Source of the DNA: Candidatus Spongiisociaceae bacterium
Lineage (GTDB): Bacteria > Actinomycetota > Acidimicrobiia > Spongiisociales > Spongiisociaceae
Direction: 5' to 3'
NCBI GenBank assembly: GCA_965262915.1
Contig: OZ253564.1
Span: 3,040,001 to 3,104,000, forward strand
DNA: 64,000 nucleotides
Shown: positions 8,755 to 37,039 of the stretch, in pieces
Position numbering within the stretch: position 1 is the first letter of the stretch
How the letters are laid out: each line of letters begins with the position of its first letter
Notes under the pieces: generated by a model
Databases searched by the model: none
What the model saw: only the letters and a program-made list of their open reading frames with translations
What the model was told of the DNA's origin: nothing
Position numbers and translations under genes: made by a program

Positions 8755-10437
8755 TCAGTGGCCGGCTCCGGTCGCCATCGGTACCGCGTTCCCGGTGGCT
8801 GCGCCGAGCGAGTCTCGGGCGTGGTAGGACGACCGCACCAGCGGCCCGGACTCGACGTGGGCCAACCCGACGCGCCGGCCGTAGTCGGCGTACTCGACGA
8901 ACTCGTCGGGGTGCACGTAGCGGTGGATCGGACGGTGCCGGACCGTCGGCCGGAGGTACTGCCCGATGGTCACGATGTCGACGCCCACCGCCCTGAGGTC
9001 GGCCAGTGCCCCGAGCACCTCCTCGCGGGTCTCCCCCATCCCGACTATCAGACCCGACTTGACCGTACCGGCCGGGTCGTACCACTTGGCCCTGGCCAGT
9101 AGCGCCAGGGACCGGCCGTAGTTGGCCGAGGTCCGTACCTCCCGCTGCAATCTCAGCACGGTCTCGGTGTTGTGGTTGAGCACCGCCGGTCCGGCCTCCA
9201 GCACCCTTTCCAGATCGGCCCTCACTCCCTTGAAGTCGGGGATCAACACCTCGACATCGCAGCCGGGAACCCGCTTTCTCGCCTCACGCACGGTCTGGGC
9301 AAAGATGGTGGAGCCACCGTCGTCCAAGTCATCCCGGTTGACGGAGGTGATCACCGCATGGCGAAGCCCCATCGCCGCCACCGCCTCCGCCACCCGGAAG
9401 GGTTCCTCCAGGTCCGGTCCCTGCGGGCGTCCGGTGTTCACATTGCAGAATCCGCAGGCCCGCGTACACGTGTCGCCGAGGATCATCATGGTGGCGGTTC
9501 CCTGCCCCCAGCATTCATAGATGTTGGGGCACCCCGCTTCCTCGCAGACGGTGTGGAGGTCGAGTTCCCTCATCAGCCTGCCCAAGCGGAGGTACTCGTC
9601 CCCGAAGCGAGCGGTGACCTTCATCCATGGCGCCCGAGGTGGCTCCCCGGTCAGCCGCCGCCCGATGGTGACCGGAACCTGCGAGCGTCCCTTGGGCGAG
9701 AAGCACCCGTCGGCGAGCAACCGGTCCACCTCATATTCGCGGGGACGGCCCTGTCCCCTGGTGAAGGCTCCGAGCTGTATCTCGTTGCGGGCGTAGCCGA
9801 ACACCTCCTGGAACCTCGGAACCAGCACCTCGACCGCCTCCTCGATGGAGACCGGACGGCCCAGCAACTCGACCAACGAGGTGACGGGCCGGTCGGTGAT
9901 CCCGCAGGGGTGCATGTAGGAGAAGTAGGCCATGTCGGGATCGACGTTGAGGGCGAACCCGTGCATGGTGACGTGGCGGGCCACCCGGACACCGAGGGCC
10001 GCCACCTTGCCACGGTTGGTCCACACGCCCGTGTTGCCGGCTTCGCGCCGGGCCGCGATCCCGAAGTCGGCGAGGGTCCGAATGAGGACCTCTTCGACGG
10101 CCCGCACGTAGGGAACGATCCTCTTGGTGTCGGCCAGAGCAACGATCGGGTATCCGACCAGCTGGCCCGGACCGTGGTAGGTGATGTCTCCTCCCCGGTC
10201 GATGTCGAAGCGCTCGGCTCCGACCTCGACCAGTCGCTCGGGGGTGATCAGCAGGTTGGCGCCGTTGCCGTTGCGACCCAGCGTGTAAACGTGGGGATGT
10301 TCCTGCAGCAGCAGGTAGTCGGAGGCGCTCCTTCCAGTGTGCCGCCCCTCCCAGAAGGCCCGCTGCAGGTCCCAGGACTCCTCGTACGTGAGGCGTCCCA
10401 GCCATCTCGTCCGCAGGAGAGCGTGGTCGGCCGCCAC
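8755..10437 (-). CDS. lipA: fused octanoyltransferase LipB + lipoyl synthase LipA
   Basis: N-terminal EHPHVYTLG, RGGDITYHGPGQ, HGFALN, PCG; C-terminal CEEAGCPNIYEC, CTRACGFC, RSSY in one frame; start approximate. Confidence 0.9.
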   Translation of the reverse strand: MAADHALLRTRWLGRLTYEESWDLQRAFWEGRHTGRSASDYLLLQEHPHVYTLGRNGNGANLLITPERLVEVGAERFDIDRGGDITYHGPGQLVGYPIVALADTKRIVPYVRAVEEVLIRTLADFGIAARREAGNTGVWTNRGKVAALGVRVARHVTMHGFALNVDPDMAYFSYMHPCGITDRPVTSLVELLGRPVSIEEAVEVLVPRFQEVFGYARNEIQLGAFTRGQGRPREYEVDRLLADGCFSPKGRSQVPVTIGRRLTGEPPRAPWMKVTARFGDEYLRLGRLMRELDLHTVCEEAGCPNIYECWGQGTATMMILGDTCTRACGFCNVNTGRPQGPDLEEPFRVAEAVAAMGLRHAVITSVNRDDLDDGGSTIFAQTVREARKRVPGCDVEVLIPDFKGVRADLERVLEAGPAVLNHNTETVLRLQREVRTSANYGRSLALLARAKWYDPAGTVKSGLIVGMGETREEVLGALADLRAVGVDIVTIGQYLRPTVRHRPIHRYVHPDEFVEYADYGRRVGLAHVESGPLVRSSYHARDSLGAATGNAVPMATGAGH

Positions 10438-10478
10438 CCGGAGAAACCTGTCGGGCTTCCCGGCCGGCCGGTCACCGT

Positions 10479-11903
10479 TCAGGTCAGATGCTGTTCCCAA
10501 TCCCAATTCTCCAGGTTGTCCTTTATCCGGCGCAGGAACAGCACCGCGGTGGAACCGTCGAAGGCCCGATGATCCCAGGAGAGTCCCAGGTAGCCGATGT
10601 GCCGGATGGCGATGGCGTCCTGGCCGTCGGCGGTGGTGACCACCTTGGGCCGTTTGGCCACGGTGTCGGTCGACAGTATCGCCACGTTCGGCACGTTGAT
10701 GACCGGGGCCGACATGAACGATCCGTAGGGTCCGGGGTTGGTGATCGTGAAGGTGCTTCCCGTAACGTCGTCGGGTCCCACCCGGCCGGTCCGGGCCCGA
10801 TCCGCCACGTCCCGGATCTTGCGGGCCAGCGCCCGCATGGTGTAGTCGTCGGCGCTCCTCACGGTGGCGACCATCAGGCCCGCCTGGTTGAGGTCGATGG
10901 CGATCCCCAGGTTGAGGTCGTGGTGGTACACGGCCTTCCGCCCGTCGATATCGAAGGAACTGTTGACGATCGGGAACTCCCGGAGCGCGTCGATGGTGGC
11001 CCGGGCGATGAACGGAAGGTAGGTCAGCGAGAATCCTTCCGCTTCTTTGAAAGCCTGGCGATGGGATTGCCGCACTCGTTCCACCCCCTCGTAGTCGACT
11101 TCCACCGAGGTCCACACGTGGGCCGCCGTCTGGAGCGACTTGACCATGTTGGTGGCGATCCTCATCCTCATACGGCTCAGGCGTACCTCCTCGTCCCGGC
11201 TCGTGACCGGTTCCGCGGGAGGGGGCTCCGGCCTCGGGGAAGGGGCGGGACCGGGTGCAGGGGCGGGCGGGGCCGCCTGTATCGGGGAGGGGGCGGGAGC
11301 CGGCTCGACTGCCGGCTCCGGGGCCGGTCGGGAGGCCATCCGGTCTATGTAGGCCAACACGTCGTTGCGGGTGACGCGGCCGTCACGCCCGGTGCCTTCG
11401 ATGTCGCTGGGGTCGATGTCGTGTTCCCGGGCCAACCTGCGCACCACCGGGGAGAGGAACTGGCCGGGCCCGGGCCGGCGCCGTCGCGGCCCGGTGACGG
11501 GCGCTGCCTCTTCGACCGGACGTGGCGGGGTCGGGGCGGCCGGCGCCATCGGGAGTGGAGTCGGCGGGACCGGCCCGGGGGGCGCCTCATCCGTCGGCTG
11601 GGCGGCTGCGGCTGCGGGCAAGGGTGCCGGTTCCAGGATGAGGGTTTCGGCTTCCCCCGCTTCGGATATGACCACCATCGCGGTTCCCACCTCGATGGTC
11701 TCGCCCTCGCCCACCAAGATGTCGCTGACCACGCCCGACACCGGCGAGGGGATCTCCGTGTCCACCTTGTCGGTGGATATCTCGACGAGCGCCTCGTCCT
11801 CGGCGATCGGATCGCCGACCTGCTTGATCCAACGGAGCACGGTCCCTTCGGTGACCGTCTCACCGAGTTGCGGCATCGAGACTGTGGTTGACATCGTTCG
11901 CAT
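10479..11903 (-). CDS. dihydrolipoamide acyltransferase E2 (DlaT/SucB-like)
   Basis: Lipoyl domain EISTDKV, E3-binding SPVVRRLA..GTGRDGRVT, Pro/Ala linkers, catalytic DHRAFDG. Confidence 0.93.
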   Translation of the reverse strand: MRTMSTTVSMPQLGETVTEGTVLRWIKQVGDPIAEDEALVEISTDKVDTEIPSPVSGVVSDILVGEGETIEVGTAMVVISEAGEAETLILEPAPLPAAAAAQPTDEAPPGPVPPTPLPMAPAAPTPPRPVEEAAPVTGPRRRRPGPGQFLSPVVRRLAREHDIDPSDIEGTGRDGRVTRNDVLAYIDRMASRPAPEPAVEPAPAPSPIQAAPPAPAPGPAPSPRPEPPPAEPVTSRDEEVRLSRMRMRIATNMVKSLQTAAHVWTSVEVDYEGVERVRQSHRQAFKEAEGFSLTYLPFIARATIDALREFPIVNSSFDIDGRKAVYHHDLNLGIAIDLNQAGLMVATVRSADDYTMRALARKIRDVADRARTGRVGPDDVTGSTFTITNPGPYGSFMSAPVINVPNVAILSTDTVAKRPKVVTTADGQDAIAIRHIGYLGLSWDHRAFDGSTAVLFLRRIKDNLENWDWEQHLT

Positions 11904-14278: not shown

Positions 14279-15247
14279 CATCGGTAGCCATTCCCCTGGG
14301 TGACGGGATCCACCGGATCACGTTGGCGCTCCCCATGCTCCGGCCCGAGTCGGTCAACTGTTACGTGGTCGAGGGTGACGACGGTCTGACTCTCATCGAC
14401 TGGCGGAGCGAACGCCCGCGCGGAACTCGAGAGTCTGGTGGCGAGGCTAGGCGACATCTCGGGAGGCGCCGTCGCGCTCGATCGTCTGATATGCACCCAT
14501 CTCCACTTCGATCACATGGGCGGGGCGCACACACTGGTGTCCCGGCATCCGGTGGAGTTCGTCATGCACCGCTCCACCGCCGACCGGGTCGAGAATTACA
14601 ACGATCGGACCGCCGGCCGGTCTGATCTCCGCAAGCTGGCCCGGGCTCATGGGGCGCTCCCCTCCCAACTCGATCCGGTCGAGGCGGTATGGACACGTCG
14701 CTCGTATCGCGGGATCGCCATGCGGCCGAGCCACCCGGTGGTGGACGGTGAACGCATACGGGTCGGATCGGGTCGCTACCTGGAGGTGATAACCACCCCG
14801 GGCCACGACTACACCCATATCTGCCTGCGCGACAGCCGCAGCGGCTACCTGTTCAGCGGCGACCACGTCCTTCCCCGGATCACTCCTTTCATACCGTACG
14901 ACCCGGATCGGGACTCCCTGGCCGAGTACCTGGCTGGACTGGAACTCATCGAGGACCTCGACCCCGCGGTAACCCTTCCCGGCCATGGCGAGACCATCGA
15001 TCGGGGAAGAGCCAGTGCCCGCCAGATCGCTCTGCACCACGAGGGAAGGCTGGGCGCCCTCTCCCAGGTCGTCAAGGGCCAGCCGGCAACCGCCTGGGAA
15101 ATGACGACCGAGGTCTTCCGGCCCGATCCGGACCCCTTCGACAAGATGCTGGCCTTCCTCGAGACGATGTCGCATCTCGAGTACCTGGTCAACAGAGGGA
15201 GGTTGCGCCGATCCCTGGATGACGGCGTGTGGCGATACGTGCGCTGA
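14275..15247 (+). pseudogene. MBL-fold metallo-hydrolase, frameshifted near 14402
   Basis: VNCYVVE..LTLID in one frame; THLHFDHMGG, TPGH, SGDH, PGHG in another; removing one G restores LIDCGANAR. Confidence 0.8.
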
Positions 15248-15387
15248 CCGGGTGGCGGTGAGCCTGGTGGGGGCCGACGGTGTGCCTACCCGGCGGGTTC
15301 TCGCCGCCTAGGGATCAACCGTTCCGAACCGACCATACGGTGGGCGGATCTCTCGTCGCATCAGTGGTCAGGCCGTAACCGAACCGG

Positions 15388-15609
15388 TCATCGGCCACGG
15401 TTTACTTGCAAGGGTCTGAATCCCCGGTTGCGGGCTTCGGCCAGGGTGTCCGGACCGTATGTCTGGACCAGCTTCCGTCCCATCAGATCGTCGGATTCGA
15501 TGCGGTGTTCCAGCTGGGCGAACTGCGCGGGGTCGTCGCAATCATAGACGGTCATCGTGTCCCGGGCGCCGACGAACCGGTTGTGTTCGAAGCGTCTCAT
15601 TCGAGGCAT
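15388..15609 (-). CDS. small hypothetical protein
   Basis: GAGGGGAAGG RBS, 73-aa ORF RFEHNRFVG...PDTLAEARNRGF. Confidence 0.7.
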   Translation of the reverse strand: MPRMRRFEHNRFVGARDTMTVYDCDDPAQFAQLEHRIESDDLMGRKLVQTYGPDTLAEARNRGFRPLQVNRGR

Positions 15610-15690
15610 GGCGACCTTCCCCTCAGACAGTCTCGCGTTCGGTTGGCCCGGCTCCTGCTCCGGGCGAGCGAGGACCGGCGTTCCCGGTCC

Positions 15691-16020
15691 TCATCGAGAC
15701 CGACCCCCACGGCCCGTCCTGACCTCGGTACCGCACATCGGGCAGGGCGCCACCGCGATCTCCCCGACGATAAAACTGAAGCCGCAGTCCCGGTCGGGAC
15801 AGACCGTCCGGCGGGAAGGTCGCTCGGGTGGCGGTGGCGGTGGCGGTGGCGCCATGGATCCTGGCCCGCCGGGACCGGGGGCTCCGGGAGGTGTTGCCGC
15901 CCCCGGGGGAGGAGAACCGGACGCCCGGACCTCGTTGGTAACCCCACACGCCGGGCATGCGTAACGACCCGGCCTCATGACCTCGAACCCTGTCCCGCAT
16001 CGACCGCAACGTGCCCTCAT
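15691..16020 (-). CDS. double zinc-ribbon protein with proline-rich linker
   Basis: CGRC..CPAC, poly-Pro linker, CPDRDC..CPMC; ATGA overlap with upstream gene. Confidence 0.75.
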   Translation of the reverse strand: MRARCGRCGTGFEVMRPGRYACPACGVTNEVRASGSPPPGAATPPGAPGPGGPGSMAPPPPPPPPERPSRRTVCPDRDCGFSFIVGEIAVAPCPMCGTEVRTGRGGRSR

Positions 16021-16460
16021 ACCGGCTCCTGTTCCTTGACCCGTTCGCCCAGAGCGCCGATCCCGGCCAGGTATCCGGCCTCGCCGGCCAGAACCGCAGC
16101 TATGTCGGCTGTGGAGTACTCGTGGCCCTGCCTGGCCAACTGACCCCGAATGTACTCGATGGCGCTTCCTTCCCCTCCGGCCACCACCTGCAGTCCTTTG
16201 CGCAGACGGGCCGGGACGGCCAGACCCTGTAGGTAGTGCGTGGACCACTCGACGGTCCTGCGGACCCCCGCCGGACCGAGTCGCTCCAACACCTCAGGGT
16301 CGAGAGTCTCGACCGTGAAGTCCACCGCGTCGTTTATGACGTAGACGGCGGGTTCCACCGGCTGCCGACCGCGGGCCTCCACGACCGCCACCAGCGCCAC
16401 AGCGCCAATCAGCAGCACGAGGAGCAGGACGCCGATGACCACCGCGGTATTGGAAGGCAT
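16017..16460 (-). CDS. single-pass membrane hypothetical protein
   Basis: N-terminal TM helix; TAGGCT -10 just upstream of ATG. Confidence 0.75.
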   Translation of the reverse strand: MPSNTAVVIGVLLLVLLIGAVALVAVVEARGRQPVEPAVYVINDAVDFTVETLDPEVLERLGPAGVRRTVEWSTHYLQGLAVPARLRKGLQVVAGGEGSAIEYIRGQLARQGHEYSTADIAAVLAGEAGYLAGIGALGERVKEQEPV

Positions 16461-16541
16461 AGCCGGTAGCCTATCAGTGGCGAGTCGAATCGCTGCCGGT
16501 GGCAGGCGCAGCGCCGGCTCCCGGGCGGCGGGGCCGCCACG

Positions 16542-16770
16542 CTATCCGAACGGGAGCAGGATCCAGGACTTCCCGGCCGGCGACGAGGCGTCGACCCCCG
16601 TAGCCCATCTCGGACAGCGTGAACGGCGCTTCGCCTACCACGAGGGAGCGGTCGTTCGGAACCCCCCGGTAGTACCGGCCGTCCCGCTCCTCCGCTTGGC
16701 ATCGGTGCTCGACCAGGCCCGGTTCCCCGATGCCGCCGGGTCCGATGCTGAGCGCCACCGTCCCGGTAGG
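16542..16770 (-). pseudogene. relic C-terminus of a fourth beta-propeller paralog
   Basis: PTGTVALSIGPGGIGEPGLVEH...YYRGVPNDRSLVVGEAPFTLSEMG then frameshifted VDASSPAGKSWILLPFG*; matches C-termini of the three intact genes. Confidence 0.75.
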
Positions 16771-16912
16771 TTGCTGATCTCGACCGGGAGTCCGGCGGGC
16801 GCTCCCGGACCGGCCCCCAGCGACCGGCACCGCCATCACGACCCTGTCGATCACCCGTGGCGATGGTCATCCGCCTGCCCCGGTAGAGCTACCTCTGCGG
16901 GTTCGCGGCCCC

Positions 16913-18958
16913 TCAGTTCCCGATGTACTCCTCCAGGGGGAACCGTATCCAGGAGGTCGCGGACAACGATTCCAGATCCGATCCCTTGAGTCCCGCGGCG
17001 GAGAGGGTGAACAGGGTGTCACCCACCACGAGCGATCGCTCGATAGGGAGGGGGCCCATGCCGCCATAGTAGAGGGTGTCGCCATCGGAAAGATCGACCT
17101 CGTGTTCGATGCTCCCGCGCTGCTCCATGCCCTCCCGGCCCACATCGATGACCATCGCGTGGTGGAAATCGGTCCAGACGTCCGATTCTTCGTCGTACTC
17201 CCACGACCCGATGGGCAACACAGCGATTCCGGTCGGTGGCCAATATAGAAAAGCGCGATGGTCGAACTCGACCTCCGAGAACGATGACTCCGGCAACGTC
17301 AGCTGATGTGCCCGGACCGGGTTGGCCAGATCGGAGACATCGAAGATGGAGACCTGCGTTCCCATGATCCGGCCCTCCTCATCGGCGTCCTGGCCCACGC
17401 CGAGCAGCAGCCCGTCGCCGATCGGGTGCAGGTAGGCCGAGTAACCCAGGATCTTGAGTTCACCCACGACTTTCGGGTCGGCCGGGTCGGACAGGTCGAT
17501 CGTGTAGAGCGGGTCGGTCTCGCGGAAGGTCACGACGTAGCCGATGTCGCCCATGAATCGGACTGCGTATATCCGTTCTCCCCGGCCGAGGCCACCAACC
17601 GAACCTACGACCAGAAGCTCTCTCCCGTTCCGTTCCAGAACGTCCACGCGGCTGTCCGGCTCTTCGTCGCTCCACCACCATGGCGGCGCACTCGTGGAAG
17701 CCACGCGGAGATAACCGTCGTGCTCGGACATGGCGAACTGGTCCAGCAGGAAGCCTTCCACGGACCCGCTCGCCTCGTAGACCGGGCCTTCGGGGCCGCC
17801 GATGCCGAAGCGGTGGATATGGGTGGCCAACCCGCTGATATCCTCGTCGTCCGAGTCGATCCACCGATGGTTCGCCACGTAGAGGCGGTCGGTCGACGCG
17901 TAGACAGTATCGCCTCCCGACATTACGCTGGCCACCGATTCCACGTCGATCGCTTCGCTCATATCGAAGGTCAGCACCGAGACGACGGCGATGCCCGAGA
18001 ACTCCTGGGGGGTGTAAGCCGCGGAGCAGTCGATCATGACCCCTCTCGTGGCTGAATCATCCGGGCCTCGGTTCAACACGTAGCTTGGGGCCCAGTCCTC
18101 CAGTGTCGACTCTGCGATCAACTGCCGGTTGATCTCCTTCGCCCGCGACTTCTCCGGTTCGGAATGCGAGGAGGAGTAGTCGAACTCATCGCTGACCCTC
18201 GGTTCGAAGGTCAGCGCCAGAGCTACCCTATCCCCGACCAGCCGGGCTGCAATCAACTCTCCATCCACCACAAGAGTGTTCGCGACCCGCATCCGCTCGG
18301 GCTCAGAGAGATCGATCTGCAACACCAGCGTTGTGACGCGACCGCCGTCGGAATACGTTGATGCCAAGACGAGGGCGCTGTCGCCGCTCATGAACATCTG
18401 GTGGTACCAGAGATCGGTGGTCCCCCATGAGAGGAGCGGCAACCCTGAGACCAACTCCGGGGGACCGGAAGAGACATCTATGTAGTACAGGATCCCGCCG
18501 GCCAAGGCCAGAATACGTTTGCCATCCGTCTTCACGATGTCAGGTTCGTCGACCTCCAGTTCCTGTACGTTGGTGGTGGAGTAGTCCACTCCCGGTCTCA
18601 GCATGGAAGCTCCCACGCTGTCCTGCCCGGTGGCCGCGGTCGTCGCCACGGCGGCTGTCGTGGTGGCCGCCGACCAGCCTTCGCCCTCGAAACCCCAGGG
18701 TCCGACCTGTTCGGTCGCAACTCGCTTGACGTGGTTGAGAAACGCGTCGCAGGTCTCGAAGTCCACCAGTTGCGATCCGAACAGGCCGATGGGCCGGATT
18801 GGGTTATCCCCTTCCGAGCCGATTGGACTGTCGACTAACGTGCCGAAACCGCTCGATACAGTCGGCTCGGTAGTGTCGGAGACCGGTTCGGTGGTGTCGG
18901 AGACACAGGCGGTCAAAACCGCCACCAGCGCCACTAGCCGGATTGCGTATTTCCTCAT
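16913..18958 (-). CDS. secreted beta-propeller domain lipoprotein 1 (Beta_propel/COG4880-like)
   Basis: Lipobox LTAC; YSTTNVQE..DEPDIVKTDG, FAMSEHDGYLRVAST, YVVTFRETDPLY, GELKILGYSAYLHP. Confidence 0.88.
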   Translation of the reverse strand: MRKYAIRLVALVAVLTACVSDTTEPVSDTTEPTVSSGFGTLVDSPIGSEGDNPIRPIGLFGSQLVDFETCDAFLNHVKRVATEQVGPWGFEGEGWSAATTTAAVATTAATGQDSVGASMLRPGVDYSTTNVQELEVDEPDIVKTDGKRILALAGGILYYIDVSSGPPELVSGLPLLSWGTTDLWYHQMFMSGDSALVLASTYSDGGRVTTLVLQIDLSEPERMRVANTLVVDGELIAARLVGDRVALALTFEPRVSDEFDYSSSHSEPEKSRAKEINRQLIAESTLEDWAPSYVLNRGPDDSATRGVMIDCSAAYTPQEFSGIAVVSVLTFDMSEAIDVESVASVMSGGDTVYASTDRLYVANHRWIDSDDEDISGLATHIHRFGIGGPEGPVYEASGSVEGFLLDQFAMSEHDGYLRVASTSAPPWWWSDEEPDSRVDVLERNGRELLVVGSVGGLGRGERIYAVRFMGDIGYVVTFRETDPLYTIDLSDPADPKVVGELKILGYSAYLHPIGDGLLLGVGQDADEEGRIMGTQVSIFDVSDLANPVRAHQLTLPESSFSEVEFDHRAFLYWPPTGIAVLPIGSWEYDEESDVWTDFHHAMVIDVGREGMEQRGSIEHEVDLSDGDTLYYGGMGPLPIERSLVVGDTLFTLSAAGLKGSDLESLSATSWIRFPLEEYIGN

Positions 18959-18992
18959 GATCAGTCCTTCCGGAGCGCTACTCGGTAGGTAT

Positions 18993-19020
18993 GACGCCGG
19001 CGACTGCGCCAAAGGTTCCC
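18993..19020 (-). promoter_or_regulatory. ECF-sigma-type promoter GGGAACCT-N16-CGTC
   Basis: Same motif and spacing before all three propeller genes. Confidence 0.75.
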
Positions 19021-19150
19021 GATGTCGGTCAGGCGGTCGGGAGACGTTCCCGCACGGCCCCCGCTCCAGTACCCGGGCAACCGCCCACCACGATGACGAG
19101 CCATCGATCACCTGTGGCGCTGGTCATGGCCCCGGCCGGGTAGAGGTGGC

Positions 19151-21229
19151 TCAGCTGGCGGCGTACTCCTCGATGGGAAACCGTATCCAGGAGGTCTCGG
19201 ACAGGGAATCGAGGTCGGATCCTTGGAGTCCCAACCAGGAGAGGGTGAAGAGGGTGTCACCGACGACCAGGGAACGGGAGATCGGAACGGACGCCATATA
19301 CGAGTAGAGGTCGTAACCAAGCAATGGCTCATACTCGATATCAGGATCGATTTCCTGGCGGATCCTGCCGAGTTCGTCGATTCCGTCGGGTCCGACGTCG
19401 AGTACGGCAGCCTCGTTGAAGCTCACCCAGTTGTCATCTCCGTCTCTGTAGTCCCACCATCCGATGGGTAGGACCGCGATACCGGTCGGAGGCCAGTAGA
19501 GGAAGGCGTGGTGGTCGAACTCGGCCTGGGATCTGGAGAACTCCGGGAACGTGTACTGGTGTATCCGGATCGGGTTGGCCAGATCCGAGACATCGAATAC
19601 GGACACCTGCGTACCGCTGGTCCTCCCCTGCTCGTCGGCGTCCTGGCCCACACCCAGCAGCAGCCCCTCCCCGATCGGGTGCAGGTAGGCGGAATAGCCC
19701 AGGATCTTGAGTTCCCCGACCACCTTCGGCGCGGTGGGGTCGGACAGGTCGATCGTGTAGAGAGGATCGGTCTGGCGGAACGTGACAACGTAGCCGATCT
19801 CGCCCATAAAGCGCACCGCGAAGATCTGTTCGCCCTCACCGAGACCTGCCACCGACCCCACAACATGTAGCTCCCGGCCGTCCCGTTCCAGCACGTCCAC
19901 GCGGCTCTCGGAAGTCCCGTCAGTGCGCCACCACCAGGTCGGCATATCCGTGGACGCCACCCTCAGGTAGCCGTCGTGCTCGGACATCGCGAACTGGTTG
20001 AGCAGGATACCGTCGACGGATCCGCTCGCTTCGTAGACCGGCCCGCCGGCACCGCTGATATCGAAGCGGTGGATATGGGTCGTTATGCCCTCCACATCGT
20101 CTTCGCCCGCTTCGTCCCGGTCGATCCAGCGGTGGCTGGCCACGTAGAGGCGGTCGGTGGACGCATAGACGGTGTCGCCTCCCGACATGACGGTGGCCAC
20201 TTGGTCCACAGCGACGCCCTCCGTGAGGTCGAACGTGACCACCGAGAGGGTGTCGAACCCGGAGAACTCCTGGGGTGCGTAACCGGAGGAGCAGTCGATC
20301 AGCGAGCCCTCCGAGGCTACCCCTCCGTCGGGCACTTTCAGCTCGTACCGGGGCGCCCAGTGCTCCAGAGCCGATTCCTCGATGACGCTGCGGTTGACCC
20401 TCTCCGCCCGCAACTCGGCCGACTCGGTGCTGGAGGAGGGGTAGACGAACTCGGAGCCTATCGTCGGCGAGGCGCTCACGACCAAGGCCACCCGTTCGCC
20501 GACCAGCCGGGCGGAAACGAAACCGGCCTCGATCATGAGGGTGCTGACCACACGCATTTCGTCGGGATCGGAGAGGTCGACCTGCGCAACCAGCGTGATG
20601 TCCTGGTCTGCTCTCGCGTAAGGATCGAGACCATGCGCCATCAGCAGAACGGTATCGCCGCTCATGAAGATCTGCTGGTTCCAAAGGTCCATGTCGTTCC
20701 ATGACAGCAACGGCATAGACGAGACCAACTCCGGGACACCGGATGAAACATCTATGTAGTGCAGAGCGCGGTAACCCACGGCCAGAATGCGGCCCCCGTC
20801 GGTCTTGACAAGGTCGGGCTCATCGACTCCTACCTCCTGAACATTGGTGGTGGAGTAGTCCACCACCGCGTCCGCCTGTGCGGACACCGATGCGTCGGAG
20901 GGGGCATCCGCGGCCTCCTCCTCGACCATCATCTGGACCGTTTCTCTTAGGAGGGGATTGTCCTTGTTGAATCCGTAGGGTCCTACCCGTTCGAGCGCCT
21001 CAGCCTTGATATGGGCGAGGAAGGCTTCACACGAGTCGAACTCCACCAACTCCGATGCGAACAGCCCCACGGGTCCGTCCGGAACGGTTCCAGTCGTTGG
21101 GGCGACGGTGTCTACGGTGGAGTCGGCGCCGGTTCCCGTCAGGCTCGTCACAGCCGGTTCGGTGGCCTCGGCCGCGCAGGCGCCCACCAAGACCGCCAGT
21201 GCGACCAGCCGGATTGCAATCTTGCTCAT
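19151..21229 (-). CDS. secreted beta-propeller domain lipoprotein 2
   Basis: Lipobox VGAC, Thr-rich linker, same motifs as paralog 1; GAAGGAAG RBS. Confidence 0.88.
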   Translation of the reverse strand: MSKIAIRLVALAVLVGACAAEATEPAVTSLTGTGADSTVDTVAPTTGTVPDGPVGLFASELVEFDSCEAFLAHIKAEALERVGPYGFNKDNPLLRETVQMMVEEEAADAPSDASVSAQADAVVDYSTTNVQEVGVDEPDLVKTDGGRILAVGYRALHYIDVSSGVPELVSSMPLLSWNDMDLWNQQIFMSGDTVLLMAHGLDPYARADQDITLVAQVDLSDPDEMRVVSTLMIEAGFVSARLVGERVALVVSASPTIGSEFVYPSSSTESAELRAERVNRSVIEESALEHWAPRYELKVPDGGVASEGSLIDCSSGYAPQEFSGFDTLSVVTFDLTEGVAVDQVATVMSGGDTVYASTDRLYVASHRWIDRDEAGEDDVEGITTHIHRFDISGAGGPVYEASGSVDGILLNQFAMSEHDGYLRVASTDMPTWWWRTDGTSESRVDVLERDGRELHVVGSVAGLGEGEQIFAVRFMGEIGYVVTFRQTDPLYTIDLSDPTAPKVVGELKILGYSAYLHPIGEGLLLGVGQDADEQGRTSGTQVSVFDVSDLANPIRIHQYTFPEFSRSQAEFDHHAFLYWPPTGIAVLPIGWWDYRDGDDNWVSFNEAAVLDVGPDGIDELGRIRQEIDPDIEYEPLLGYDLYSYMASVPISRSLVVGDTLFTLSWLGLQGSDLDSLSETSWIRFPIEEYAAS

Positions 21230-21277
21230 CACCGCTTCCTTCTGGAATCTCTTCCATTCTGACCAGTTGAGAGGTGA

Positions 21278-21305
21278 GACGTATCGGAGACCACGGCAGG
21301 TTCCC
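21278..21305 (-). promoter_or_regulatory. ECF-sigma-type promoter GGGAACCT-N16-CGTC
   Basis: Same motif and spacing as 18993-19020 and 24017-24044. Confidence 0.75.
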
Positions 21306-21779
21306 GCCGTCGGCCGGGAATGTGATGGATTCCGGCGGATACTCATCAGTGCTTGACGAAATAGTTGCTGTCACGGTTGGCGGGTTTGTACGGACCACCG
21401 CAGATCGCGCCAGGCCACCGCGGTGAGGAAGATCCGGCGAAGGAGACCTCCGCCGCGATCATCACCCGAATCGCGCAACCAGACCGCCAAGAACGCCGCT
21501 GCCGGCGCTTGCTCAGGGGCCTCCCCGTCCACCACAGTGCCTGGGCTCGGAGCGCGTCCTCCCCGCCCCCTCCGGAAGGCTGTCGGGCACCGAGATTCCT
21601 GATCCTTTGGGCGGTCGAGCGACGTCCGGTTCGTCATGGCCCTGCTGTTTGGTACCTCCAATAGTGCAACACAGGTGTGACAGCATCAACCCCACGCGGG
21701 GCGCGGTGGCTCGAGCCGGCCGCCCGCCTTCCCGCGTCGCTTCCTCTACGCGACTGCCGGCCGCCGGTCGACCTTCCCG

Positions 21780-21826
21780 GCTGACTCCGGTCGACGACCC
21801 GCTATAGGTCATCGACCGGAGTCGGC
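21780..21826. terminator. ~20-bp stem hairpin downstream of propeller 3
   Basis: GCTGACTCCGGTCGACGACC / GGTCATCGACCGGAGTCGGC inverted repeat with 7-nt loop; no U-tract. Confidence 0.5.
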
Positions 21827-21890
21827 TACCGGCGGTACCGAACCGCAATGTCGGCGTCGACGTCGTCCACCACCGCGGATGCTGCCAGCC

Positions 21891-23966
21891 TCAATAGCGG
21901 TAGGTAGACGACTCGTACGGGAACCTCGTCCAGGAGGTCTCGGACACCGATGTCAGGTCCGTTCCGGCCAGGCCGGCGTCGGAGAGGGTGAAGATCGTCT
22001 GGCCTATGACGAGTGATCGTCGGATGGGAACGTATCTCCAGTAGTACGAACCCCGATCGAACTCGGGAGCGTCCTCGGGGGGTTCGTGTTCGATGGTGCC
22101 GAGTTCTTCGATGCCGTCGGGTCCGACGCCGAGCACGATCGCCCCTTGGTATATCCCTCTCCTGCCCGACTCGTCCCTATCTCCCCACCATCCGACTGGC
22201 AGGACAGCGGTTCCGGTCGGGTGCCAATAGAGGAACGCCCGGTGGTTGAACTCGACCTCGGTTCTCGATGACTCCGGAAGCGTGAACTGGTGGGTCCGGA
22301 CCGGTTTCGCCAGATCCGACACGTCGAAGATGGACACCTGCGTTCCCTTGACTCGGCCTACCTCGTCGGCATCCCGGCCCACACCGAGCAACAGTCCTTC
22401 GCCGATCGGGTGCAGGTAGGCCGAGTAGCCCAGGATCTTCAACTCGCCCGCCACCTTCGGGTCGCTCGGGTCGGACAGATCGATGGTGTAGAGCGGGTCG
22501 GTCTGGCGGAAGGTCACCACGTAGCCGACCTCCCCGATGAACCGCACCGCGAATATCCGTTCTCCCTTGCCGAGGCCGGCCACCGACCCCACGGCCCTCA
22601 GCTCGCCCCCATCCCGTTCGAGAACGTCCACGCGGCTCTCGGAAGCCTCGCTACGCCACCAACCCCACACCGGGGCGTCGGTGGACGCCACCCGCAGGTA
22701 GCCGTTGTGCTCGGACATGGCGAACTGGTTGAGCAGGAATCCGTCCACCGAACCGCTCGCCTCGTAGACAGGTCCATCGGACCCGCCGATGGCGAACCGG
22801 TGGATCCGGGTAGTGATCCCTTTGGCGTCGGCCGCGTCGAAGTTGTTCCGGTCGATCCACCGCCGGTTCGCCACGTACAGGCGGTCGGCGGACGCGTAGA
22901 CGGTGTCGCCTCCCGCCATGACGGTGGCCACCTCCCCCACGCCGATGTTCTCGGCGAGGTCGAGGTTCAGCACCGAGAGGAGGCCGAACCCGGAGAACTC
23001 CTGCGGTGCGTAGTTGGCCGAGCATTTGATCAGCCTTCCCTCTCTGGCGGTTCGCGAGTTCCGGACTCTCAGCTCGTATCCGGGTAGCCAGTGCGCCAGC
23101 GTCGACTCCTTGATGGCCGCGCGATTGGCCCGCTCCGCTCTGGCCATGGCCGACTCGGACATGCTGGCGGGATAGACGAACTCCGACTCGATACGGGGCA
23201 TGGACGACAGCACCAGGCTGGCCCGTTCACCCACCAGCCGGGACGATACGAGGCTTCCCTCGATCGAGAGACTCCTCACCACGCGGAGGACCACGGGTTG
23301 GGAGAGATCGATCTGCACGATCACCGTCTCGACGCCGGGCTCCCGGAGCGGCTCGTACCGGTATCCGGACATCATGAGGAGAGCGGTGTCACCGCTCAGG
23401 AACAATTCGATATCCGGCGATCCCAACCCGCGCCGGAGGGGGTTGTACCAAGGCCACAGGTCGTACGTGGACACCAATGCGGGAGCACCCGACGACACGT
23501 CGATGTAGTACAGGACACCCTGAGCGAGCGCCAGGATCCGTGTACCGTCCGTCTTCACGATGTCCGGTTCGTCGACGCCCACCTCTTGGACGTTGGTGGT
23601 GGAGTAGTCCACGCCGGCGGTGAGCCTGGTGGACCCGCCGGCCGCCCCGCCGGCCGCCCGACCGGAATCCTCTTCCGCTGCAGCCTCCGCAGCATCCTCA
23701 GCTCCGAAGAAAGTGAGCGGACGGCCCCTGGCGAACCCGTACGGACCGACCCGCGCCAACGCCTCGCTCTTGAGGTGGTCGAGGAAGGCATCGCAGGTGT
23801 CGAAGCCGACCAGTTGCGATGGGGAGGGATCTGACGGTTGTTCGGTATCGGCGGCCACGAGGCCGGACTCCGTTTGCTTCGGGGCGGGCTCCGACAGGGC
23901 AAGACCGGGGTTTGCGGCGGTGAGCAGCATCACCAGGGCCACCATCCATCCTACGTGCTTCCTCAT
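21891..23966 (-). CDS. secreted beta-propeller domain protein 3 (signal peptide, no lipobox Cys)
   Basis: MRKHVGWMVALVMLLTAANPGLALS signal; same propeller motifs. Confidence 0.88.
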   Translation of the reverse strand: MRKHVGWMVALVMLLTAANPGLALSEPAPKQTESGLVAADTEQPSDPSPSQLVGFDTCDAFLDHLKSEALARVGPYGFARGRPLTFFGAEDAAEAAAEEDSGRAAGGAAGGSTRLTAGVDYSTTNVQEVGVDEPDIVKTDGTRILALAQGVLYYIDVSSGAPALVSTYDLWPWYNPLRRGLGSPDIELFLSGDTALLMMSGYRYEPLREPGVETVIVQIDLSQPVVLRVVRSLSIEGSLVSSRLVGERASLVLSSMPRIESEFVYPASMSESAMARAERANRAAIKESTLAHWLPGYELRVRNSRTAREGRLIKCSANYAPQEFSGFGLLSVLNLDLAENIGVGEVATVMAGGDTVYASADRLYVANRRWIDRNNFDAADAKGITTRIHRFAIGGSDGPVYEASGSVDGFLLNQFAMSEHNGYLRVASTDAPVWGWWRSEASESRVDVLERDGGELRAVGSVAGLGKGERIFAVRFIGEVGYVVTFRQTDPLYTIDLSDPSDPKVAGELKILGYSAYLHPIGEGLLLGVGRDADEVGRVKGTQVSIFDVSDLAKPVRTHQFTLPESSRTEVEFNHRAFLYWHPTGTAVLPVGWWGDRDESGRRGIYQGAIVLGVGPDGIEELGTIEHEPPEDAPEFDRGSYYWRYVPIRRSLVIGQTIFTLSDAGLAGTDLTSVSETSWTRFPYESSTYRY

Positions 23967-24016
23967 GATCGGTTCCTTCCAGGAGTCATCCAGCCGGGTG
24001 TTCTCTCGGTAGTTAG

Positions 24017-24044
24017 GACGTACGGTAGATGTCGCAAGGTTCCC
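24017..24044 (-). promoter_or_regulatory. ECF-sigma-type promoter GGGAACCT-N16-CGTC
   Basis: Third copy of the motif. Confidence 0.75.
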
Positions 24045-24197
24045 GCCGCGTCGGAGATAGGACGGTTTGGACAAACCTGCCGTCACCGCGCGCCCGATGA
24101 CCTCCCCGCGCCGCCGTCCTGCAATGGGTTACCAACATGGCGATGGGGCAATTACCCTTGGGGATACAGATCTACGCATCTACCGGGAGAACCACCG

Positions 24198-24956
24198 TTG
24201 ACGGATACCGTCCCGCTGCTCGTTATCGAAGACCTTCATGTGGCCGTTGACGGCCAGCCGATCCTCCAAGGGGTCGATCTGACCACGTTCCGAGGCGAGA
24301 TCCACGCTTTGATGGGTCCGAACGGGTCCGGCAAATCGACCCTCGCCAAGGTGCTGATGGGACATCCAACGTACCGGATCACGTCCGGGAAGGTGTACTT
24401 CGACGGGGAGGACATCACCGGGGCCGATACGCCTTCGCGGGCCCGGATGGGCATGTTCCTCGCCTTCCAGTACCCCGAGGAGATACCGGGAGTGTCGGTG
24501 GTCAACTTCCTCCGTACCGCTTTGAGCAACCGGAGCGGGATCGACTACACGGTCCTCGAATTGCGCCTGCGAGTGATGGACGCCATGTCGTCCCTGGGCA
24601 TGGACTCCGCCTTCGCTGATCGGTACGTCAACCAGGGATTCTCGGGTGGGGAGCGCAAGCGCAACGAGGTACTGCAGATGGCGGTGCTCGAACCCGATCT
24701 GGTCATCATGGACGAGACCGACTCGGGACTGGACATCGACGCCCTCGGCATCGTGGCCGAGGGCGTGAACCGGCTGGCCGGACCGGAACGGGGTTTCCTG
24801 ATCATCACCCACTACCAGCGCCTCCTCGACCACATCACCCCCGATGTCGTCCACGTTCTGGTCGACGGCCGCATCGTCGAGTCGGGTGGGGCCGGTCTGG
24901 CCCACAGGCTGGAGGCCGACGGCTATGAGGCCTTTCGGGTGACCGCGGCGTCATGA
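24198..24956 (+). CDS. sufC: Fe-S assembly ATPase SufC (paralog 1)
   Basis: GPNGSGKST, LAFQYP, FSGGERKR, DETDSGLD, ITHYQR. Confidence 0.93.
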   Translation: MTDTVPLLVIEDLHVAVDGQPILQGVDLTTFRGEIHALMGPNGSGKSTLAKVLMGHPTYRITSGKVYFDGEDITGADTPSRARMGMFLAFQYPEEIPGVSVVNFLRTALSNRSGIDYTVLELRLRVMDAMSSLGMDSAFADRYVNQGFSGGERKRNEVLQMAVLEPDLVIMDETDSGLDIDALGIVAEGVNRLAGPERGFLIITHYQRLLDHITPDVVHVLVDGRIVESGGAGLAHRLEADGYEAFRVTAAS

Positions 24957-26182
24957 TCGACCCGGGAGCCATCCGCGCCGACTTCCCGATCCTGGACCGG
25001 AGGATCAACGACCGGCCGCTGGTGTTCCTCGACTCGGCGGCCAGCTCCCAGAAGCCCGTCCAGGTGCTCGACGCCATGATGCGCATCTATCGCACTTCCT
25101 ACGCCAACGTTCATCGCGGCGCCTACACCCTCTCGCAGGAATCCACCGAGGCCTACGAGGAGGCCCGCCGCAAGGTGGCCCGGTTCCTCAACGCGACCGG
25201 CGACGAGGAGGTGATCTTCACCCGGAGCGCCACCGCGGGTATGAACCTGTTCGCCTACGGCTGGGGACTCAACACGCTCAAGCCCGGCGACCGGGTTCTC
25301 ACCAGCGTGATGGAACACCACGCCAACATCGTGCCGTGGCACATCATCGCCCGCCATACCGGCGCCGAACTGGCCTACATAGACCTCACCGACGACTTCC
25401 GGCTCGACCTGGCCGGCGCTCGAGACTGCTTCGACGAGCGGGTCAAGATAGTTGCCCTCTCGGGCATGTCCAACGTCTTGGGAACCATGCCCCCGATCAC
25501 CGATATCGCCCGGATGGCGCACGACGTGGGTGCGGTCATGCTGGTCGACGGGGCACAGATGGTTCCCCACTCCCCGGTGGACGTCCAGACGTTGGGGGCC
25601 GACTTCCTGGCCTTCTCGGGGCACAAGATGCTCGGACCCACCGGCATCGGAGTGCTCTGGGGACGGAGGGAGTTGCTGGAGGAGATGGAGCCGGCCGAAG
25701 GCGGAGGCGAGATGATCCGCGACGTCCGCTTGTTCGAATCCACCTGGGCTCCGGTACCGCACAAGTTCGAGGCGGGTACTCCGCCGTTCGTGGAGGCGAT
25801 CGCACTGGGGGCGGCCATCGACTACCTGTCCGACATCGGAATGGACAGCGTTTTGGAGCACGACCGGCAGTTGACCGCCTACGCGCTGGAGCGCCTGGCG
25901 GATGTGCCCAACCTGTCCATCCAGGGACCCACCGATACCACCGACCGGGGCGGGGCGATCAGCTTCGACATTCCCGGCATCCACGCCCACGACGTGGCGA
26001 CCATCCTCGACGAGCAGGGGGTGGCGGTACGGGCCGGGCATCACTGTGCGAAGCCCCTCATGCGCCGCCTGGGTCTGACCGCCACCACCCGGGCATCGTT
26101 CTATATCTACAACGTGCCCGAAGACGTGGATGTCCTGGTCGACGCCCTCGGCGTGGCCCGGCGGCTGTTCGGACTCCCTTGA
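24953..26182 (+). CDS. sufS: cysteine desulfurase SufS
   Basis: LDSAASSQKP, EHHAN, FSGHKM, RAGHHCA. Confidence 0.95.
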   Translation: MIDPGAIRADFPILDRRINDRPLVFLDSAASSQKPVQVLDAMMRIYRTSYANVHRGAYTLSQESTEAYEEARRKVARFLNATGDEEVIFTRSATAGMNLFAYGWGLNTLKPGDRVLTSVMEHHANIVPWHIIARHTGAELAYIDLTDDFRLDLAGARDCFDERVKIVALSGMSNVLGTMPPITDIARMAHDVGAVMLVDGAQMVPHSPVDVQTLGADFLAFSGHKMLGPTGIGVLWGRRELLEEMEPAEGGGEMIRDVRLFESTWAPVPHKFEAGTPPFVEAIALGAAIDYLSDIGMDSVLEHDRQLTAYALERLADVPNLSIQGPTDTTDRGGAISFDIPGIHAHDVATILDEQGVAVRAGHHCAKPLMRRLGLTATTRASFYIYNVPEDVDVLVDALGVARRLFGLP

Positions 26183-26894: not shown

Positions 26895-28710
26895 CCTGAA
26901 TCCACCGACGGCCTCCCCGGGGGGTGGTCCGGGGTGCGGTTGGTGGGGGGTTGAGGGGTTGGGGCTGGTTGGATTCGGGGGGTTTCGGGGGTGTGGTGGG
27001 TGTGGTTTGGTGGGTTAGGTAGTGTTGGGGGCTGGTTGGGATGGTTTCGGGCGTGTGTGGTCGGGGTTTGGGTGGTTGGTTATGGTTGCGGCGGGTCCGT
27101 CGGGCCGGGTCAGCAGAGCTGTGGCAGCGCCCGGAGGTTAGTGAGGGTGGTTAGGTAGGCGCCGGCCCAGGGCCATCGGGCGGGTAGACGCAGGAGGCGG
27201 CGTCCGCCGTGGTTGACGAGGCGTCCAGGGAGTCCGAACAGTCGGGTACGGATGGTACGTCCACAGACCAGCCGCCCGGGCGGCTGCGTACCCCCGAGGA
27301 GGGCTATCTGCCGGTAGAGGTTATGGGCTAGGGCGGCGCAGATCAGCCAGGCGGCGTTAGCTGCGAAGACGCCGGAGGGTAGGTGGGCGAGACCCCCGGA
27401 GTCTTTGAGGTCGCGGATGGCGAGTTCGCATGTGGCGTGGCGGCGGTGGTACCGGTCGATTTCGACCGCGGGCAGCGGGCTGTGCGCTTCCCCAGGGTTG
27501 TCACCGATCTCTACCACCGGCAGTTCGGCCACTTCGGTGTCTTGTTCGCCGCGGCGGGGTTGGTGACCGGTGTCGTCTTGTCCGGCCCCGGGTTGGTGGC
27601 GCCGGTCGGCTTCTGCCGCGGGCAGGTCCAGGTTGGTGACCAAGGTGTGGTACCGCCAGTCGGGCCACAGCTCGGCTTGGGAACCGACCAAGCGGGTGCG
27701 GCGCACTACCAGGCGAACCCGGCGTTTCTGCGACCGTTTCTTGGGGTTGGTCATCTCCAGGACTGTTTCCCCCACTTGTGCCAGCCCGCCTTCGGGATAG
27801 GCAATGGGGGTCCACGCGTCTTTGTCGATATTGCTGATCAGTGTCCTAATCTTGGCATTCAGCGGGCAGGTGATCGACCAGCCCACCCCGAGGCGGTCGA
27901 GGGCGGCCAAGAGGGTATAGGACCAGAACCCCGAATCGGCCCGCACGCTCACCGGGCCCCTGGCCCCGGCCCGTCGCACACGCCGCACTGTCTCCCCAAC
28001 GAAATGGACCACACCCCTCTGCGATGCTCCTTCCCGCAGACGGGCGCCGACCACTTCCCCCGTATCGGCTCGGAACGCCAACAGCGGGTGATAACCCAAC
28101 TCTTTGGTGTAGCCATAGGCGGCCCCTTGTTTGGTCTTGGCAGACACCTCACAGATCGTCGAGTCCACATCGAGGGTCACCGCTCCCTTGCCGGGACCGG
28201 CGCCCGCCCGCCACGCACGGCCCAGCGCTACGGTCACCACCTTCTCCAACTGGCGTACATGACCCCAGGTGAACGAACGCAGGAAGGTTCCCACAGTGGA
28301 CGGGGCCATCACCGCATGGGGCAGCACCCGGTCGGTGGAACCGGCCCGGAGCCGATCCACATGGTCAATATGGGAGGCGCCCACCAGCATCGCAGCTACC
28401 AACGTGCATACCTTACGACCCGGATGCGCGCCACCCACCCGGCCGCCCAACCGCACCGTCCGATCCACCAAACCTTCCAAACCCAAACGGTCCATCAACG
28501 TCCCGGCCGCCAACAACCCAGCGTCGGCCACCAGCCCCTCATCATCGAAAACCGCCTCATACCGGTCGATATTCTGCAATACTCCACTCACAGGAAGTGC
28601 CTCCAGACTCCGAGCCAATCACCATGTTTCGTATGGCTATTGTCCCAGATCAGAGGCACTTTCCGCGTCTATCCACCCCCAACCACAGAATATCTACCGG
28701 TGGATTCAGG
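26895..28710 (-). mobile_element. IS1380-family insertion sequence, 1816 bp
   Basis: IRs CCTGAATCCACCG/CGGTGGATTCAGG; 5-bp direct repeat CTTAG on both sides. Confidence 0.92.
27110..28618 (-). CDS. IS1380 DDE transposase
   Basis: TLDVDST, GYHPL, VRADSGF, HATCELAIRDLK, FAANAAW. Confidence 0.9.
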   Translation of the reverse strand: MARSLEALPVSGVLQNIDRYEAVFDDEGLVADAGLLAAGTLMDRLGLEGLVDRTVRLGGRVGGAHPGRKVCTLVAAMLVGASHIDHVDRLRAGSTDRVLPHAVMAPSTVGTFLRSFTWGHVRQLEKVVTVALGRAWRAGAGPGKGAVTLDVDSTICEVSAKTKQGAAYGYTKELGYHPLLAFRADTGEVVGARLREGASQRGVVHFVGETVRRVRRAGARGPVSVRADSGFWSYTLLAALDRLGVGWSITCPLNAKIRTLISNIDKDAWTPIAYPEGGLAQVGETVLEMTNPKKRSQKRRVRLVVRRTRLVGSQAELWPDWRYHTLVTNLDLPAAEADRRHQPGAGQDDTGHQPRRGEQDTEVAELPVVEIGDNPGEAHSPLPAVEIDRYHRRHATCELAIRDLKDSGGLAHLPSGVFAANAAWLICAALAHNLYRQIALLGGTQPPGRLVCGRTIRTRLFGLPGRLVNHGGRRLLRLPARWPWAGAYLTTLTNLRALPQLC

Positions 28711-35231: not shown

Positions 35232-35554
35232 GGCTCCCCCCGTCCGGGCTCGAGTCCCACCATCACCACCCCGTGCTCGACCCGCACCGTGTAGGTGGGG
35301 ACCGGGCGGGTGGCGGGGAGGGAATCGGGGCGGCCGGTCCGCACGTCGAACTCGGAGCCGTGCCGGGGACACTCCACGTCGTAGTCGAACAACTCACCCT
35401 CGGCCAAGGAAGCGTCGGCATGGCTGCACCGGTCGCCGATCACGAAAAAGTCGTCCTCGATACGGAACACGGCCAGACGGTGACCAGCCACCTCCACTCT
35501 CGTACCTTCCCCGTCGAGGAACGTGTCCGCGTCACCTACCCGTATCCACTCCAT
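35228..35554 (-). CDS. Rieske-type ferredoxin
   Basis: CSH...CPRH motif. Confidence 0.92.
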   Translation of the reverse strand: MEWIRVGDADTFLDGEGTRVEVAGHRLAVFRIEDDFFVIGDRCSHADASLAEGELFDYDVECPRHGSEFDVRTGRPDSLPATRPVPTYTVRVEHGVVMVGLEPGRGEP

Positions 35555-36822: not shown

Positions 36823-37039
36823 GGACCGATCCTCCACATCGTGGGTGTCGCATGGTAGACGGGTTCCCCATCGTATTAGCACTATCGCCGTAGTGCGAAG
36901 CCGGTGCTCGCTGACAGATGGCCGGATCAAGGCGTTGACTGCTCCACCTTGTTATAGCTACCAGCTAACGGACGCACAATCACCATTGGCAAAGGTCCGC
37001 TGGCACCGTTCGACCCCCCAGGCTACTCCTCCAACGGCG

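Follow-up and report, generated by a model that had tools for sequence, protein, structure and literature searches.

Three tandem Beta_propel genes, each with a candidate ECF-type promoter, in a Candidatus Spongiisociaceae genome

Introduction

The window analyzed in this work is a stretch of 64,000 nucleotides (C1:3040001-3104000; contig OZ253564.1) of the genome of a Candidatus Spongiisociaceae bacterium, a member of the Acidimicrobiia, and it carries at positions 16537-24044 of the minus strand a tandem array of three intact genes of the Pfam family Beta_propel (PF09826) together with the C-terminal relic of a fourth. The intact genes have been named bp1, bp2 and bp3. We consider it probable that the array is a lineage-specific tandem expansion in which an ancestral promoter of a type read by extracytoplasmic function (ECF) sigma factors was kept by each copy, and in which purifying selection has maintained an envelope protein now subfunctionalized into anchored and released forms. 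The gene concerned is single-copy in most Acidimicrobiia, and the expansion is a local one and not a new kind of system; the proposal made in an earlier sequence-only reading, that this was an undescribed system, was too strong for what is a local expansion of one widespread gene. The source genome (here G000) is a single contig of 5.06 Mb with 64% G+C, in which bp1, bp2 and bp3 are the sole Beta_propel copies. Relatives are referred to as G001 to G009, and fetched loci carry L numbers.

The array and its putative promoter

The three intact genes lie on the same strand and encode proteins of 691 aa (bp3, 21891-23966), 692 aa (bp2, 19151-21229) and 681 aa (bp1, 16913-18958), their starts being taken as the ATG downstream of a conserved GGAAGGA ribosome-binding site. 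All three are full-length paralogues, as the sequence-only reading had described them: bp1, bp2 and bp3 match PF09826 with 437.6, 427.9 and 430.2 bits (cut-off 22.4; E about 1e-128) over almost all of the 495 model positions (1-494 in bp1 and bp2, 1-493 in bp3), and their pairwise amino acid identity is 56-59%. The relic, which the same reading had also recognized, was recovered at about 16537-16797 (minus strand) by tblastn, tblastx and translation. It retains the last blades only (equivalent to about residues 596-680), comprises some 75-85 codons without a start and without a promoter, and aligns with the C-termini of bp1, bp2 and bp3 (tblastn E 1e-4 to 4e-3 within the window, and tblastx as well); its frame translates as …GVPNDRSLVVGEAPFTLSEMG…. 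In contigs from other samples the relic stretch shows +2, +1 and -1 indels, all of them frameshifting, as is expected of non-coding DNA. These contigs (4 runs from 4 studies) span all 30 bins of the array and are short pieces which cannot reveal copy number. One apparent joint in X8, linking 16753 to 23632, was disregarded, as its shorter side measures just 22 letters and it is probably a mis-joining of paralogues.

Each intact gene is preceded on the minus strand by GGGAACC and, after 17 nt, CGTC. The bp3 copy (24017-24044) is an exact pattern match with GGGAACC as the -35 and CGTC as the -10 element, then CTA; it is located in the divergent spacer facing sufC, and the end of its CGTC is 47 nt ahead of the ATG. 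The bp2 copy (21278-21305, then TCA) is positioned 42 nt ahead of a GTG start at 21232 that was picked by script, with the ATG another 3 nt on, and the bp1 copy (18993-19020, then ATA) is 31 nt ahead of its ATG. The pattern GGGAACC-N{16,18}-CGTC has exactly 3 matches in the 64-kb window, all with N17 and all 31-47 nt 5' of a bp ATG, so that the earlier observation of the same motif at every intact gene holds for 3 out of 3 and for no other place in the window. Shuffling of the window gave a mean of 0.47 matches of this strict motif, and 3 were reached in 2 out of 100 shuffles; a looser pattern is at chance level in the window (4 matches against 4.1 in shuffles).

The pairing of GGAAC with CGTC at a spacing of approximately 16-17 nt is the form of an ECF promoter. 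The conservation of the motif was addressed with the regions upstream of Beta_propel genes in 104 loci from relatives, which yielded 106 distinct regions. The pattern GGAAC-N17-19-CGT[CT] occurs upstream of the orthologue in 66 of these 106, against about 3 expected by chance on our estimate from the rate in the window. It is present in nearly all loci titled Acidimicrobiia and in one from Longispora, and in none of the 22 titled Gaiellaceae, Solirubrobacterales or Thermoleophilia. From 68 sites the consensus cGGGAACC-N16/17-CGTCnnA was derived, with a free spacer sequence; GGAAC has a G before it in 61 of the 68 sites and a C after it in 59, and in 63 an A is found 3 nt past CGTC. The occurrence of the motif upstream of orthologues across the class indicates that the promoter is ancestral to the Beta_propel family in Acidimicrobiia and that each duplication carried the promoter along with the gene, which bears out the earlier view that the duplicated unit is promoter plus gene. 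We read the motif as a putative ECF-type promoter conserved across the class, and co-induction of bp1, bp2 and bp3 within a small envelope regulon appears likely from this conservation and from the presence of the motif before a few other genes for exported lipoproteins.

An inverted repeat approximately 65 nt past the bp3 stop (21780-21826, minus strand) could form a hairpin with 20-nt arms, 90% complementary, and a 7-nt loop, and this hairpin is the probable terminator of bp3, even though a terminator-consensus scan (stem plus T run) did not call it. The 192-bp spacer between the bp2 stop and bp1 is free of hairpins and contains the bp1 promoter, and read-through from bp2 into bp1 is possible. 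Scans for sigma-70 promoter and terminator consensus sequences returned 0 sites each, and an Rfam search of 15000-25000 at E up to 1 returned one chance-level snoRNA match and nothing else. Between bp3 and bp2 the spacer measures 658 bp and is largely taken up by a dispersed repeat some 250-300 bp long (21436-21743). With blastn this repeat was located at 14 further places in G000 (68-78% identity; C1:4357048-4357259 and C1:1654502-1654798 are examples) and at none in the loci fetched from relatives. This repeat may be a MITE-like (miniature inverted-repeat transposable element) sequence. The end of the array is marked by h147 (16017-16460, minus strand), a gene whose conserved product of 147 aa is predicted to have a single membrane helix and has no Pfam or NCBIfam match.

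Copy number, synteny and phylogeny

The distribution of the family shows that three copies are the exception. Of 41 relatives belonging to the same genus, family or order, 36 have PF09826, in nearly every case as a single match, and of 151 genomes of the class with a completeness of at least 90% it is present in 62; among these 41 and 151 genomes three full-length matches occur in none but G000, and the array is thus not fixed across the class. Rows with multiple matches are mostly pieces of one broken gene. True pairs are present in G007, where they are in tandem, in G009 and in a few class-level genomes, the G009 pair representing a separate and older event. Within the family the gene occupies a fixed slot, in the order h73, h147, Beta_propel and then the divergent sufC-sufS-sufU, and tblastn detected h147 in 20 of the 104 fetched loci, where it has the same orientation as the Beta_propel gene and mostly follows it at a distance of 70-300 nt.

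A quick maximum-likelihood tree was built from 45 rows (L001-L030, L091-L104 and the window), with branches evaluated by the Shimodaira-Hasegawa-like approximate likelihood ratio test (SH-aLRT). In this tree bp3 clusters at a support of 100 with G001, with G002 and with G007b, the upstream one of the two G007 genes, while bp2 clusters with the downstream gene of G007 (G007a) and G003 at a support of 99; the bp2 orthologue of G007 is 73% identical and in the tandem position. The congener G007 therefore has bp3- and bp2-type genes in tandem and in the same order as G000, which means that the bp3/bp2 duplication is older than the split of these species. The bp1 gene and the relic are extra copies seen only in G000: the genomes sampled contain no bp1 orthologue, and G007 has no third copy.

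Two congeners show further changes at this slot. In G007 the bp2-type gene and h147 are separated by a gap of 2.5 kb, which contains an unrelated open reading frame (ORF) of 500 aa on the opposite strand (L097, 4593-6092), possibly an insertion. In G005, whose genome is a single contig, the Beta_propel gene of the slot (L095, C1:2142545-2143006) is cut down to a C-terminal fragment covering model positions 357-494 within a 222-aa open frame, and the gene appears to be dispensable in the G005 lineage.

Selection and variable sites

The bp copies are old and under purifying selection. Pairwise comparison of the paralogues by the Nei-Gojobori method gave dS of 0.88-0.95, dN of 0.31-0.33 and omega of 0.33-0.38, dS being close to saturation and omega and any dating accordingly rough; orthologue pairs taken from duplicated and single-copy lineages gave dS of 0.26-1.44, dN of 0.051-0.327 and omega of 0.18-0.37. 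These values do not support the diversifying family that the sequence-only reading had envisaged. In windows of 40 codons pS between paralogues is 0.22-0.84 throughout, leaving no homogenized tract, while pN is about 0.4-0.6 in the linker and drops to 0.04-0.15 over residues 400-560, and between residues 121 and 680 no 40-codon window has pN above pS. At the nucleotide level the paralogues are 67-68% identical, with no identical run longer than 22-29 nt. Taken together, the pS and pN windows and the short identical runs indicate that the conservation of the C-terminal blades is due to purifying selection and not to gene conversion, of which no tracts were found.

The variation between paralogues is regional more than it is confined to loops. 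From residue 125 onwards identity among bp1-3 is 61% in strands and 47% in coil (Fisher p = 0.002), only a modest enrichment of variation in loops. The stronger pattern is that both strands and loops vary within residues 165-345 and 585-645, while residues 345-565 are 70-95% identical. The blades of this last region had been described as near-identical, which was an overstatement, and the positions concerned are conserved family-wide. The mean frequency of the top residue across the family is 0.44 at sites that vary among the paralogues and 0.71 at sites identical among bp1-3, so that the paralogue-variable sites are the sites at which the whole family varies.

Export signals and fold

The N-termini of bp1-3 consist of a basic segment and then a hydrophobic region, a pattern typical of a secretion signal. 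As the sequence-only reading had noted, two of the three carry a lipobox (…VLTAC in bp1, with LTAC as the box, and …LVGAC in bp2, with VGAC), and the signal region of bp3 (MRKHVGWMVALVMLLTAANPGLALSEP) has no Cys and no lipobox. On this pattern bp1 and bp2 are predicted to be lipid-anchored and bp3, with its plain signal peptide, to be released; the enzymes for lipidation, Lgt (PF01790, 109 bits) and LspA (PF01252, 119 bits), are encoded in G000 with one match each. The loss of the lipobox is common to bp3, G007b and G002, that is to all bp3-clade genes with a readable N-terminus (the N-terminus of G001 was not resolved by our script), while most other Acidimicrobiia orthologues carry the lipobox Cys. 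It should be noted that the lipobox regular expression matched 41 of 74 distinct N-termini, that L007 and L024 are false negatives, and that a wrong hydrophobic region was chosen in L016-L018, L034, L037 and L091; hence our statement is made at the level of clades. The shared loss in the bp3 clade supports subfunctionalization into anchored and released forms, and the split into anchored and released proteins suggested earlier is retained.

An AF2 model of bp2 (93-sequence alignment; pLDDT 85.7, pTM 0.86) shows a beta-propeller with about 40 strands over residues 141-683, preceded by a short strand-and-helix cap (residues 62-102) and by regions modeled as disordered (residues 1-56 and 101-121, signal and linker), the linker between signal peptide and cap being of low complexity. 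Searches with Foldseek and VIA-align returned generic propellers alone, at Z 15-17 and 7-14% identity with none prominent, among them WD40 proteins, BamB, YxaL, N2O reductase and tetrathionate hydrolase. A search of PDB sequences with a 3-sequence profile gave 0 matches at E up to 1, the ESM Atlas returned Beta_propel clusters only, and Pfam did not report LVIVD (PF08309) for bp1-3 at E up to 0.01. The residues invariant in the family include a DEPD…K motif, R241, C313, Q412, R473, TF..DP and G.S.YLH, and they may make up a single conserved surface for binding or catalysis. The conserved face at about residues 345-565 contains the invariant motifs GYSxYLHP, TFRQxDP and DEPD.

Among homologues elsewhere, the long ones are double Beta_propel proteins or else join the family to cadherin-like, dockerin, LVIVD or RTX modules, which is consistent with an extracellular role. 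A group of metagenomic proteins (P0004-P0017) of 1310-1507 aa, 36-43% identical to bp2 and with PF09826 as the sole annotated family, probably hold two Beta_propel units per chain, judging from their length; if they are indeed doubled, tandem copies have sometimes become fused. No functional study was found in a full-text literature search for PF09826, COG4880 or Beta_propel, and nothing on function was found for Spongiisocius, Spongiisociaceae or Poriferisocius.

A wider set of genes with the motif

In five related genomes, all complete or nearly so, the consensus GGGAACC-N16/17-CGTCNNA was matched 19 times and its reversed control once. Ten of the 19 precede genes for exported proteins, namely 3 Beta_propel genes and 7 others, which comprise three VWA lipoprotein genes (vWF_A and YfbK_C domains in one of them) and one gene each for a lipoprotein with DUF4349, a lipoprotein of the serpin type, a SIMPL protein and a protein with RCC1 repeats. 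In G000 this consensus gave 6 matches and its reversed control 0, and the motif precedes the orthologous genes for the DUF4349 lipoprotein (2260462-2261424), 5 nt ahead of the ATG, and for a VWA lipoprotein (4838803-4840710, minus strand). NCBIfam yielded no match for the DUF4349 protein, nor for bp1-3, h147 or h73. At the DUF4349 gene the motif ends 5 nt before the ATG both in G000 (C1:2260428-2261424) and in G006 (L118), a distance which points to a leaderless or nearly leaderless transcript.

G000 encodes 8 sigma-70-family genes, of which 5 are ECF-sized (near genome positions 104 kb, 396 kb, 1154 kb, 4235 kb and 4695 kb) and three long. With 76.0-91.6 bits against TIGR02983 (SigE-fam_strep), the five ECF proteins stay under its cut-off of 141.55, and an ECF gene adjoins the Beta_propel gene in only 2 of the 104 loci. 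A primary-like (group 1/2) sigma-70 paralogue, in an ORF of about 372 aa, was seen within the window at 39872-40081 (plus strand).

On the strength of these genes a broader claim could be made, of a class-wide and undescribed ECF envelope regulon of Acidimicrobiia with Beta_propel as its core and DUF4349, VWA/YfbK-like and serpin proteins as further members, the core having been repeatedly duplicated and split into anchored and released forms, for a host-related role, in the lineage whose relatives have sponge-associated names. We regard the claim in this full form as doubtful.

Discussion

The array would work as follows under the local expansion that we favor. One of the five ECF sigma factors encoded away from the array would be activated by an envelope-related signal and would start transcription independently at bp1, bp2 and bp3, the bp3 transcript ending at its own hairpin and that of bp2 possibly running on into bp1; the same sigma factor would also fire a few other genes for exported lipoproteins (DUF4349, VWA). 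The bp proteins would be exported by Sec, after which bp1 and bp2 would be lipidated by Lgt and LspA and would stay attached by a flexible tether on the membrane's outer face. The bp3 lineage would have lost its lipobox cysteine before the species split, with release of bp3 as the outcome, and the conserved propeller region may bind or process a conserved envelope ligand.

Several points weigh against this interpretation. The near-saturation of dS makes both omega and the dating of the duplications rough; the tree leaves out L031-L090 and has SH-aLRT support only, and in it bp1 stands alone on a long branch near G004 with a support of 84 and its fork drawn open. As to a cognate sigma factor, none of the five ECF genes of G000 is near the array, none has the motif upstream even when the pattern is loosened, and all five proteins fall under the NCBIfam cut-offs of the named ECF types. 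Nine of the 19 motif matches in relatives are intragenic or without a convincing downstream gene. Transcription starts and the co-induction of the bp genes are deduced from the promoter motif, and the signal peptides and lipoboxes are assigned by sequence pattern. Finally, structural matches to generic propellers (Z 15-17) make any biochemical role drawn from the bp2 model a guess.

Among other explanations, dosage amplification would hold that redundant copies are kept just to raise output on induction. It would fit such amplification that promoter and ribosome-binding site are retained in all three copies, and likewise all of the residues invariant in the family. We think it improbable nonetheless, since the copies, at 56-59% identity, are not near-identical, the loss of the lipobox has been kept in three bp3-clade genes with readable N-termini, congeners retain one type or the other, and the fourth copy has been left to decay.

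Slightly less probable still is a diversifying surface family under positive selection for recognition of variable ligands or hosts, expanded on account of the organism's place in a lineage whose closest relatives bear sponge-related names. Duplication has been repeated in this family of genomes (three copies in G000 and two each in G007 and G009, the latter pair independent), the nearest loci are titled Candidatus Spongiisociaceae, Spongiisocius and Poriferisocius, long homologues are fused to cadherin-like, dockerin and RTX modules, and the blades at residues 165-345 and 585-645 are merely about 30-35% identical among bp1-3, all of which would suit such a family. Against it stand the overall omega of the paralogues with no window in which pN exceeds pS, an equal omega in single-copy orthologue pairs, the coincidence of the variable sites with those that vary across the family, and the presence of gene and promoter in many Acidimicrobiia that bear no hint of a host in their titles. 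A third alternative takes the shared motif not for an ECF promoter but for a conserved leader element or a site at which some other regulator binds. This would fit with no cognate sigma factor having been found and with none of the ECF genes being autoregulated through the motif, but is very unlikely given the motif's bipartite form with a strict spacing of 16-17 nt, its free spacer, the position of GGAAC and CGTC at promoter distance from the ATG, and its identity in form to actinobacterial ECF promoters reported as validated in the main text of PMC6767563.

The closest known system on the side of regulation is the sigma-E regulon of Streptomyces coelicolor for cell-envelope stress, for which the main text of PMC6767563 gives a promoter of the same form, (G/C)GGAAC, 17-18 nt, CGTC(T/C), with GGGAAC-N17-CGTCTG at pspA and GGGAAC-N17-CGTCTC at mreB among validated targets, which are mostly membrane proteins, lipoproteins and secreted proteins. 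That main text nowhere contains the word "propeller", and in contrast to S. coelicolor no sigE-cseABC-like locus was identified in G000. At the level of the protein, bp1-3 are ordinary members of PF09826/COG4880 (secreted, with a C-terminal beta-propeller), with a full-model match, an export signal and a propeller fold; they show no difference from that family, to which the present work adds the conserved ECF-type promoter in Acidimicrobiia and the three-gene array. BamB (Z 16.0-16.2) and YxaL (Z 15.8) are, like the bp proteins, exported or lipid-anchored single-domain propellers; however, at 7-11% identity there is no sequence similarity, eukaryotic WD40 matches reach the same Z, and the bp protein differs in its greater size, with residues 141-683 holding about 40 strands, and in an additional helical cap. 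Surface proteins with LVIVD repeats are connected through some long homologues, and through 34% of the members of one Atlas cluster, in which PF08309 stands beside PF09826, whereas PF08309 was not reported on bp1-3.

Some other features of the window may be recorded here. A 786-aa ORF at 8755-11115 (minus strand) combines the catalytic domain of a lipoyl ligase/transferase (LplA-B_cat) with a lipoyl synthase (LIAS_N and Radical_SAM), has the appearance of a LipB-LipA fusion, and adjoins lpd. A DDE transposase (DDE_Tnp_1_4; 27110-28618, minus strand) is located between sufU and a fumarase gene, and a second suf set, comprising an ABC ATPase gene (34428-35372) and SufBD (35554-36930), lies 8-10 kb away on the other strand.

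As for the array, it is an ordinary and tidy duplication of promoter plus gene, followed by a switch from an anchored to a released form. What is new here is the class-wide link of Beta_propel with an ECF-type promoter common to genes for DUF4349 and VWA lipoproteins. Beta_propel/COG4880 proteins are widespread and exported and have no known function, and the conserved promoter offers a concrete handle on them: the sigma factor and its inducing signal would show the condition in which the Beta_propel protein is needed.

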